Source: Escherichia coli
GTDB taxonomy: Bacteria; Pseudomonadota; Gammaproteobacteria; Enterobacterales; Enterobacteriaceae
Direction: 5' to 3' (one strand)
Length of the DNA: 64,000 nt
Assembly (NCBI RefSeq): GCF_003334255.1
Contig: NZ_QOWU01000006.1
Positions 6,331-11,299 of this stretch are shown here, piece by piece (position 1 is the stretch's first letter; each line of letters starts with the position of its first letter). Below the pieces are notes generated by a model. It searched no databases, was not told where the DNA came from, and saw only the letters and a program-made list of their open reading frames with translations. A program made the translations under genes and the position numbers.

Positions 6331-6480
6331 GACTCCTCCAGTGAGAAAATAGAGCAAAAAGATAAGTATAGATGCTGGAGGAGGGGCGATTTTAAATGAG
6401 AGGAATCTGGTGTGCCTCCCTTTCGGGTGAAAGGGAGGAAGGGATATTAAGCAGGTTGCTGACAACGTGCGGGCTTTTTT

Positions 6481-8107: not shown

Positions 8108-8869
<762 letters not shown>

Positions 8870-8924: not shown

Positions 8925-8997
8925 GTTTTGCAACTCCTTGATTTTTCGAGATGCGGCAAAAACGTGATGCACGATTTATAGGGCAATACCCTGAAGA

Positions 8998-9027
8998 TGC
9001 ACCATTCTGGGGCACCAATCTGGTGCG
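8998..9027. promoter_or_regulatory. Tandem NtrC (NRI) binding sites upstream of glnHp2
   Basis: TGCACCATTCTGGGGCACCAATCTGGTGCGC contains GCACCA-N3-TGGTGC (9012-9026), a good match to the NtrC palindrome, overlapped by a second half-matching copy; about 90 bp upstream of the sigma-54 -24 element. Confidence 0.6.
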
Positions 9028-9257
9028 CTAAAATTGTGCACTCAACACAGTGATTATTTAGCGTAAAACCTGATGAAAAAACAATCTTTATGTAACGATT
9101 GTGTGATGATGTGGATACAAAAAATTTACTTAATCAGCTGGAGATAGCAGATGGATGCACTAAATAAGTGCGTTGAGGTGGGCTGCAAAACAAAACGGCC
9201 TCCTGTCAGGAAGCCGCTTTTATCGGGTACTAAAGTTCTGCACCATCAGCGATGGAT

Positions 9258-9905
<648 letters not shown>

Positions 9906-10021
9906 TTAGATATATTGATAAGAACAATTCTTATTTATCTGCTCGCCAGGAATTTTCGGAATAAATATGCTTTTGCATAATTCGATATATAAAGACGGTG
10001 TAGAGGAAAAGTAGCGAGAAA

Positions 10022-10051
10022 TTCTGCATGGTTATGCATAACCATGCAGAA
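10022..10051 (-). terminator. Perfect 30-bp palindrome immediately 3' of rhtA (probable rhtA terminator/insulator)
   Basis: TTCTGCATGGTTATGCATAACCATGCAGAA is its own reverse complement (15+15, no spacer), 8 nt past the rhtA stop; a moderately U-rich stretch follows on the minus strand. Confidence 0.55.
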
Positions 10052-10059
10052 ATGTAAAT

Positions 10060-10947
10060 TTAATTAATGTCTAATTCTTTTATTTTGCTCTCTTTGCGTA
10101 CTGTCAGCGTAGACCCCATTGAAGCGGCGATGATAGCGCCGAGCGCCAGTAGCTGTATGGGTGTCAGTGTTTCTCCGAGGAAAATCATCCCGGAAACGGC
10201 AGCCAGCGCCGGTTCCATGCTCATCAGCGTACCAAATGTCCGTGTTGGCAAACGGGTGAGGGCAATTATTTCCAGCGAATAAGGCAGAGCGGTCGAGAGA
10301 ATAGCGACAGCCAGACCCAATGGAATAACCGACCAGTGCCAGAGTGCTTCACCAGCCTGAAGCGCTCCAATTGGCACGAAAATTAACGCTGCAATCAACG
10401 AACCAATTGCCACCGTCGCAGGGCCATGTTCCGCTCCTGCGCGTTGCCCACTTAAAATGTAAATAGCCCAACAAGCCCCGGCCCCCAGTGCCAGCGCACA
10501 GCCGGTTAAATCGACATGGGAAACGTCTTGCCCCAGCGGTAGCAGGAACCACAGACCAAGAACCGCCAGCACAACCCAGACGAAATCTACCGGGCGACGA
10601 GAAGAGAACAGCGCCACCGCCAGTGGTCCGGTGAACTCCAGCGCCACCGCAATACCCAGCGGTACTGTCTGAATAGAAAGATAAAAAAGATAATTCATCC
10701 CACCCAGCGAAACGCCGTAAAACAACAGCGGTAACCGTTGCTCTTTGGCAAAGCGCAGTCGCCATGGCTTAAAGAACGCGATGAGGATCAGCGTTCCTAA
10801 TGCCAGACGCAGCGCAGTGACACCCGGTGCGCCCACCAGAGGAAAAAGTGACTTAGCTAACGAGGCTCCACCCTGAATAGACGCCATGGCAACGAGCAAT
10901 ATGACTATTGGTAACCAGACCGGCATTTTACGTAATGAACCAGGCAT
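10060..10947 (-). CDS. rhtA: Threonine/homoserine exporter RhtA (DMT/EamA family)
   Basis: 295-aa ten-TM protein starting MPGSLRKMPVWLPIVILLV; ATG at 10947. Track ORF begins 4 codons upstream. Confidence 0.88.
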   Translation of the reverse strand: MPGSLRKMPVWLPIVILLVAMASIQGGASLAKSLFPLVGAPGVTALRLALGTLILIAFFKPWRLRFAKEQRLPLLFYGVSLGGMNYLFYLSIQTVPLGIAVALEFTGPLAVALFSSRRPVDFVWVVLAVLGLWFLLPLGQDVSHVDLTGCALALGAGACWAIYILSGQRAGAEHGPATVAIGSLIAALIFVPIGALQAGEALWHWSVIPLGLAVAILSTALPYSLEIIALTRLPTRTFGTLMSMEPALAAVSGMIFLGETLTPIQLLALGAIIAASMGSTLTVRKESKIKELDIN

Positions 10948-11299
10948 CCTTTCTCCCACAAATATCTAGACTTAAGTAAAGCGTGGAGTGTACTGGATAT
11001 ACCCAATGCTGGTTGAGCATTTGTTGAAAAAATTTTCCCCCGTTTTGACTAAAATGCGCCAGGATTGATGGAATCATTAGTCTGGTGATTAGGAATAATC
11101 TGGATGAATGACAGGGAAAACATGCGTAATACTTACGCAGTTCTCTGAAAAAGTGATTTAAATTTAGATGGATAGCGGTGTATGGAAACGTTCTGTTACA
11201 TGAAATGGCCCGTTAGACATCACAAATCGCGAAGAGTTTCCCATTAATTTTTGATATATTTAAAACTTAGGACTTATTTGAATCACATTTGAGGTGGTT

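Follow-up and report, generated by a model that had tools for sequence, protein, structure and literature searches.

Some Rho-dependent transcripts of E. coli have their steady-state 3' end at a stable, protective stem-loop that carries no U-tract. In the model of Dar and Sorek (2018; PMC6061677), such messages are terminated at a more distal point and then shortened to the hairpin by PNPase or RNase II. A covarying stem-loop of this class, lacking a U-tract and associated with a 'C>G bubble', has been described for talB in Escherichia, Citrobacter and Enterobacter (Jin et al., preprint, 10.1101/2023.10.02.560326). Canonical intrinsic terminators, by contrast, have a G+C-rich stem base, a U-tract of 7-8 nt and often an upstream A-tract. 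Two other kinds of palindrome can occupy similar positions: REP elements, which are extragenic palindromes downstream of genes that are able to stabilise the upstream mRNA and that form a multicopy sequence family, and the palindromic operators of dimeric regulators, which keep both their sequence and their spacing.

Here we analyse a perfect palindrome between rhtA and dps in a 64,000-nt stretch of Escherichia coli DNA, the whole of which is called the window below. Like the stem-loops of Dar and Sorek and that of talB, the rhtA hairpin is stable, lies near the stop codon and has an energy like that of intrinsic terminators; it is likewise without a U-rich tail or an upstream A-tract, is followed on the sense strand by sequence in which C exceeds G, and covaries across the Enterobacteriaceae while its flanks drift. 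It differs from them in that its membership of the class is putative, and in that the self-complementary loop of Escherichia turns the DNA into a perfect palindrome. Moreover, unlike the U-less class, the E. coli rhtA hairpin is followed by a short run, UUU(U)CU, and could be an intermediate. The dps terminator (a hairpin followed by GUUUUGUUUU, ending at window ~9190) and the ompX terminator (11832-11859) resemble the rhtA hairpin in stem length, energy and position after the stop codon, but where canonical terminators have a G+C-rich base and a U-tract, rhtA has an A-U base and the tail UUUCUCGC. With REP elements the rhtA hairpin shares its extragenic position downstream of a gene and the capacity to stabilise the upstream mRNA, and with operators its dyad symmetry; however, it is single-copy, and it keeps pairing while varying in spacing and sequence.

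Results

A single-copy palindrome in the rhtA 3' UTR

Positions 10022-10051 of the window (TTCTGCATGGTTATGCATAACCATGCAGAA) are their own reverse complement, with 15-nt arms and zero spacer, which bears out the exact 15+15 inverted repeat described in the initial annotation. The ORF coordinates also agree with its placement 8 nt past the rhtA stop and about 260 bp before the dps start: the rhtA stop codon occupies 10060-10062 on the minus strand, the hairpin falls within the rhtA 3' UTR, and 260 nt lie between the palindrome and the dps ATG at 9761. The mapped dps start site (window 9800) is 222 nt downstream of the palindrome. In MG1655 (NC_000913.3) the palindrome is found at 849172-849201, coordinates being converted by adding 839150 to the window position, an offset anchored on the tabulated positions of the ompX start and of the 3' end of the dps terminator. 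The features of the region are as follows.

10060..10947, minus strand: rhtA coding sequence, threonine/homoserine exporter, 295 aa (ORF, RefSeq annotation of identical DNA, synteny)
10052..10059, minus strand: 8-nt spacer from the rhtA stop codon to the hairpin (ORF coordinates)
10022..10051, minus strand: perfect 30-bp palindrome (exact inverted repeat; hairpin with covariation in 72 Enterobacteriaceae loci)
10014..10021, minus strand: tail adjoining the stem on its 3' side, UUUCUCGC, with U at 4 of 8 positions, at most a weak U-tract (sequence)
9872..10013, minus strand: C-rich, G-poor stretch, candidate Rho-utilisation region and distal dps upstream region (base counts)
9967..9980, minus strand: small hairpin, ATGCTTTTGCATAA, a partial repeat of the palindrome core (86%), then UUUAUU (sequence)
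9258..9761, minus strand: dps coding sequence (ORF; start site 848950 in MG1655, window 9800, from the SMRT-Cappable-seq table)
8108-8854, minus strand: glnH (ORF, RefSeq annotation of identical DNA)
11294, plus strand: ompX start (ORF, RefSeq annotation of identical DNA)

A palindrome of this kind is expected by chance at a frequency of 64000 x 4^-15, or about 6e-5; shuffled sequence never gave a 30-mer match, and the runner-up among spacerless palindromes in the window is only 14 bp long. The window holds one copy. A search for other genomic copies, which had been proposed together with the view that the element is not a REP unit, was run on 5426 complete E. coli genomes and returned the palindrome at one locus in 5421 of them. 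The 298-bp rhtA-dps spacer, used as a query, was found in 5422 of the 5426, at a median of one place per genome, and a 50-nt query around the palindrome hit two places per genome, these being the two strands of a single site. Within these 50 nt, roughly one E. coli genome in four departs from the window sequence. REP identity, which needs a multicopy sequence family, was therefore rejected for an element that is single-copy both in the window and in E. coli genomes.

In the rhtA mRNA the element is predicted to fold into a 13-bp stem with a UGCA loop (-18.7 kcal/mol, z = -4.7), the 5' arm spanning 10039-10051, the loop 10035-10038 and the 3' arm 10022-10034. A 4-nt loop is forced upon the RNA, and therefore only 13 of the 15 arm positions are able to pair. 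The stem is only 40% G+C and has A-U pairs at its base; the corresponding DNA hairpin is predicted at about -13 kcal/mol per strand. The window contains further perfect stems (13, 12 and 11 bp), so that the initial annotation's comment on the rarity of terminators of this length and perfection was overstated. The element is conspicuous as DNA and ordinary as a hairpin.

The stem-loop is conserved across the Enterobacteriaceae

With Dps as the query we fetched 80 loci from different Enterobacteriaceae species, 79 of which were usable. In every one of the 79, rhtA and dps are adjacent and co-oriented, with rhtA upstream, and 72 of the loci, from about 25 genera, have a hairpin of -13 to -31 kcal/mol (mean over the 72, -18.8 kcal/mol) located 0-16 nt past the rhtA stop. 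As in the protective class, the E. coli stem-loop is stable and within ~130 nt of the stop (-18.7 kcal/mol, 8 nt). Across genera the offset from stop to hairpin has a median of 7 nt and a standard deviation of 3.8, whereas the distance from hairpin to dps ranges over 91-357 nt (sd 31). The position of the hairpin is tied to the rhtA stop, not to dps.

The arms UUCUGCAUGG/CCAUGCAGAA are common to Escherichia, Salmonella, Citrobacter, Enterobacter, Lelliottia and their relatives. Within this clade the arms stand 8-10 nt apart and the loops differ in sequence and in length (4-8 nt); over all loci, loops range from 3 to 9 nt. Buttiauxella, Cedecea, Kosakonia, Phytobacter, Leclercia and Raoultella have different arms in which pairing is kept (for example UUUACCGUGG in Buttiauxella, AUUUAAUGCGG in Cedecea and GUUCUGCACGAGGC in Raoultella). 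A clade of Enterobacter and Silvania (L025, L028, L032, L044, L050, L052, L062) has added an outer, G+C-rich GGCC/GGCC helix that extends from the stop codon and lowers the folding energy to between -23 and -31 kcal/mol. In Trabulsiella and Pseudocitrobacter (L013, L015, L046, L060, L065), the distal spacer and the hairpin are lost together, the rhtA stop being 115-130 nt from the dps ATG; rhtA there ends almost at the dps promoter, and enough sequence is left for the proximal dps promoter.

Covariation points to the sense transcript

The 72 sequences were aligned with MAFFT, by sequence only, and folded with RNAalifold, which recovered exactly the rhtA hairpin helix, with changes on both sides in 11 of 11 pairs. 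When the 13-pair helix was specified by name, 92.4% of its 905 cells were standard pairs and all 13 pairs showed double changes, amounting to 167 compensatory cells; the loci are related by descent, and counting cells inflates the tally of independent events, but several clearly different stem types are represented nonetheless. None of 500 shuffles matched the pairing and covariation values of the named helix, and sliding the 3' partner by 1-3 columns as a control caused pairing to fall to 31-46%.

The alignment also discriminates between the strands and between RNA and DNA, since G·U cells are pairs only in rhtA-sense RNA and the matching A·C cells only in antisense RNA, while neither pairs in DNA. 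The counts are 49 for G·U cells and 22 for A·C cells, and fold stability favours the sense strand in 50 loci and the antisense strand in 17. This excess of G·U together with the greater stability of the sense fold indicates sense rhtA RNA rather than DNA. The palindrome is thus very probably the DNA image of a conserved RNA stem-loop in the rhtA 3' UTR, and what selection maintains would then be pairing within the sense RNA and neither the DNA sequence nor its symmetry.

Perfect symmetry is a state of the Escherichia loop

All four Escherichia species carry GG-TTATGCATAA-CC, in which the TTATGCATAA loop region is self-complementary. The loop reads TT-TGCATAA or TT-GCAT-AA in Citrobacter and T-ATGCATA-A in Salmonella, and the loops of Enterobacter are unrelated. 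Because the loop is self-complementary only in Escherichia, the perfect symmetry is a genus-level loop state laid over a much older hairpin. The length of the palindrome also differs between strains: K-12-like E. coli have the 30-bp form, four sampled non-K-12-like E. coli genomes have CAGAU in place of CAGAA, which gives a 28-bp palindrome and a stem one pair shorter, and E. coli strain SCPM-O-B-8794 (L002 among the species-representative loci) has a 34-bp palindrome. The perfect 30-bp symmetry looks like an accidental by-product that is specific to Escherichia.

The hairpin tail and the downstream C-rich stretch

On the rhtA strand the tail in the E. coli window reads UUUCUCGCUACUUUUCC, with UUU right after the stem, and in the 28-bp variant of E. 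coli UUUUCUCG (UUUUCU) replaces UUUCUCGC. With a TransTermHP-style tail score, the window tail (UUUCU) scores -4.0 and the common variant (UUUUCU) -4.5, values comparable with that of the dps terminator. These tails, the stability of the hairpin, the monocistronic rhtA transcript (see below) and the presence in Klebsiella grimontii and K. oxytoca of an unrelated, more terminator-like hairpin in the equivalent position all speak for an efficient, self-sufficient intrinsic terminator, unusually strong, that shields the dps promoter from rhtA read-through. However, the U-tract holds only 4 U in 8 in E. coli and is absent in most genera that keep the hairpin. Measured after the outermost G:C pair, the longest T-run past the stem is at most 3 in 71 of the 72 loci, as in the protective class without a U-rich tract, E. 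coli being borderline (UUUCU); by this metric the contrast with the hairpins downstream of dps is only modest, the selection on the dps side also catching REP-like hairpins. The mean tail score of -2.7 across loci is no better than that of shuffled spacers (-3.1), and 11% of shuffles of the AT-rich spacer give a tail as U-rich as that of E. coli.

The stem argues in the same direction: a simple consensus terminator scan did not call the rhtA hairpin, which is matched in length by other stems in the window and has 40% G+C and an A-U base where a G+C-rich stem followed directly by 7-8 U would be expected. An unusually strong terminator, as put forward in the initial annotation, is therefore unsupported by the stem, by the tail UUUCUCGC and by the lack of a U-tract across the family, and efficient self-sufficient intrinsic termination is unlikely. 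The accompanying idea of shielding survives in part, in that a stop-anchored, covarying hairpin behind a monocistronic gene delimits the rhtA transcript at its 3' end and sets rhtA apart from dps, without being a strong terminator. Some intrinsic termination may occur in E. coli at the UUUCU or UUUUCU tail.

On the rhtA-sense strand, the sequence beyond the hairpin is rich in C and poor in G. The first 60 nt hold 14 C and 5 G in the window and on average 14.5 C and 6.6 G in the 72 loci, C exceeding G in 67 of them. Over the ~150 nt past the hairpin, C stays at ~0.19-0.26 and G at ~0.10-0.13 in these loci, after which the two become equal, and the median C/G ratio is 2.0 over the 100 nt past the hairpin versus 1.04 in the last 100 nt of rhtA. 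The downstream sequence thus has the rut-like C-over-G enrichment of the protective class. This stretch overlaps dps upstream regulatory DNA and its composition may have other causes; the negative correlation expected between U-run length and C/G ratio was absent.

Published transcript ends and starts

In the SMRT-Cappable-seq operon table (PMC6131387), the rhtA start site at 850130 covers b0813 only, and a b0813|b0812 variant is absent from the table. Since rhtA is monocistronic in these data, stable rhtA transcripts end in the rhtA-dps spacer. The Term-seq lists of Adams et al. (2021; PMC7815308) contain zero 3' ends and call no Rho-dependent region between 848852(-) and 850273(+), and the missing 3' end counts against intrinsic termination at the hairpin as well as against the end-defining role proposed below. 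An rhtA entry is likewise absent from the TERMITe supplement and from the inverse-folding terminator-identification supplement (PMC9262186). Our search of the literature for rhtA in combination with dps, palindrome, terminator, Term-seq, bicyclomycin, ProQ or Hfq found nothing relevant. We presume that rhtA is weakly expressed, in which case its absence from Term-seq would be of little weight.

An RNA element need not mark a transcript end: the hairpin could be a regulatory structure, either the 5' stabilising hairpin of an upstream dps transcript initiated at P3 or a recognition hairpin of the ProQ type. The stem sequence is indeed conserved beyond the need for pairing, and one study reports a distal promoter-like site, P3, within the fragment F1-R1, in which the palindrome lies (PMC4433220). 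Against this, SMRT-Cappable-seq gives 848950 (window 9800) as the sole dps start and none near the hairpin (PMC6131387), and our promoter scan of 9000-11400 found no promoter-like sites. Nor did an Rfam scan of 9200-11300 at permissive E-values return more than chance-level matches (E of at least 0.58, with scores far under the gathering thresholds), and we found no literature linking rhtA to ProQ or Hfq data sets. We regard a regulatory element of either type as quite improbable.

The palindrome as DNA

According to the accessible part of the Ozoline group's study of the dps 'regulatory region' (PMC4433220), fragment F1-R1 (window ~9985-10182) includes the palindrome, primer F2 destroys one palindrome arm, and a Dps-protected site (window ~9979-10011) adjoins the palindrome, which is given no role in that part of the account. 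The fragment containing the site is reported there as necessary for maximal dps expression, and this, together with the perfect dyad symmetry and a half-site (TTCTGCATGG) that is identical in Escherichia, Citrobacter, Enterobacter and Lelliottia, would fit an operator for a dimeric transcription factor regulating dps or rhtA. Yet the spacing of the half-sites is not fixed, varying between 8 and 10 nt in the very clade that keeps them (with loops of 3-9 nt overall), and in other genera the stem is built from different sequences, each arm carrying compensatory changes. There is an excess of G·U over A·C pairs, a second copy is absent from the window and from the genome, and the site lies 222-251 nt upstream of the dps start site. 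In addition, Trabulsiella and Pseudocitrobacter have lost the hairpin and retained enough sequence for the proximal dps promoter. The variable spacing, the differing stems and the compensatory changes contradict the suggestion of a protein-binding palindrome, and we consider an operator very unlikely. The central ATGCAT is reminiscent of an NsrR half-site, and TGCA...TGCA of NtrC sites; both candidates were rejected for misfitting flanks and spacing and for a centre that is not conserved outside Escherichia, Salmonella and Citrobacter.

Palindromes this short seldom extrude in vivo. A cruciform-prone, supercoiling-sensitive site, possibly a target of Dps or of other nucleoid proteins that bind branched DNA, would accord with a spacerless perfect palindrome with an AT-rich centre, with the DNA hairpin of -13 kcal/mol per strand and with the preference of Dps for branched DNA and inverted repeats reported, alongside protection of the adjoining site, in PMC4433220, but it is equally far from probable and this further suggestion of the initial annotation goes unsupported, since perfect symmetry is confined to Escherichia and varies within E. 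coli (28, 30, 34 bp), the non-complementary loops of 4-9 nt in other genera disfavour extrusion, and the strand asymmetry of both the G·U signal (G·U over A·C) and the C>G tail indicates RNA.

Discussion

We think it reasonably likely that the hairpin is an end-defining, protective element of an rhtA transcript, with Rho, weak intrinsic termination or a combination of the two ending transcription. In such a pathway RNA polymerase would pass the hairpin, possibly terminating at low efficiency by the intrinsic route at UUUCU in the case of E. coli, and Rho would load on the C-rich stretch and terminate transcription before or around the dps promoter. The transcript would then be trimmed by 3'-to-5' exonucleases as far as the hairpin, which would define and protect the steady-state 3' end of monocistronic rhtA mRNA, and the dps promoter would be insulated in consequence. 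What we infer for this locus is the dependence on Rho, the trimming by exonucleases and the precise 3' end of the rhtA mRNA.

Because the UUCUGCAUGG 5' arm is identical in several genera, beyond what pairing alone requires, and the element is exactly palindromic throughout Escherichia, the hairpin might have a second, sequence-specific role, as a site for an RNA-binding protein that governs the fate of rhtA mRNA or as a switch between read-through and insulation towards the dps promoter. We see only a slim chance of this; if the switch variant were true, rhtA transcription (or local supercoiling) would be coupled to a dps promoter 220 nt downstream.

A protective hairpin gives rhtA a specific 3' UTR feature and probably locates the end of its transcript, which is of little importance beyond annotation. 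It also explains a conspicuous palindrome inside the DNA fragments of published dps regulatory studies, and it adds one more clear, covariation-backed case of a conserved U-less 3' stem-loop with a C-rich tract following. Where rhtA is overexpressed for threonine production, the native 3' hairpin probably aids mRNA stability and the insulation of dps.

Further observations

Perfect-stem hairpins of 13, 11 and 10 bp at 18413-18443, 53392-53418 and 6415-6438, respectively, have no U-rich tail on either strand, and these may be further U-less 3'-end stem-loops. A mini-hairpin of 5 bp, UAUGC-AAAA-GCAUA, lies about 45 nt downstream of the main hairpin on the rhtA/dps strand. Upstream of glnH, at window ~8990-9030, there are repeats of the TGCACC...GGTGC type that may resemble NtrC enhancer sites. 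In the same neighbourhood, one condition list in the Term-seq data of Adams et al. (PMC7815308) has an 'orphan' 3' end in the glnH leader at 848057(-), window ~8907, just after GGCACGAUUUUUU, and the same list has two 3' ends internal to dps, at 848673 and 848852.

Two of the sources from which loci were fetched are of doubtful assignment. The 703-bp contig NZ_VIRN01000042.1 (L005) carries the label Marinobacter sp. BW6; its Dps shares 97% identity with the E. coli protein, and the contig is most likely an assembly contamination. The metagenome-assembled genome CAAEVH01 ('uncultured Raoultella') has two rhtA-dps loci (L063, L072), one Raoultella-like and the other Citrobacter-like with a hairpin identical to that of C. 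braakii, which suggests a mixed bin.
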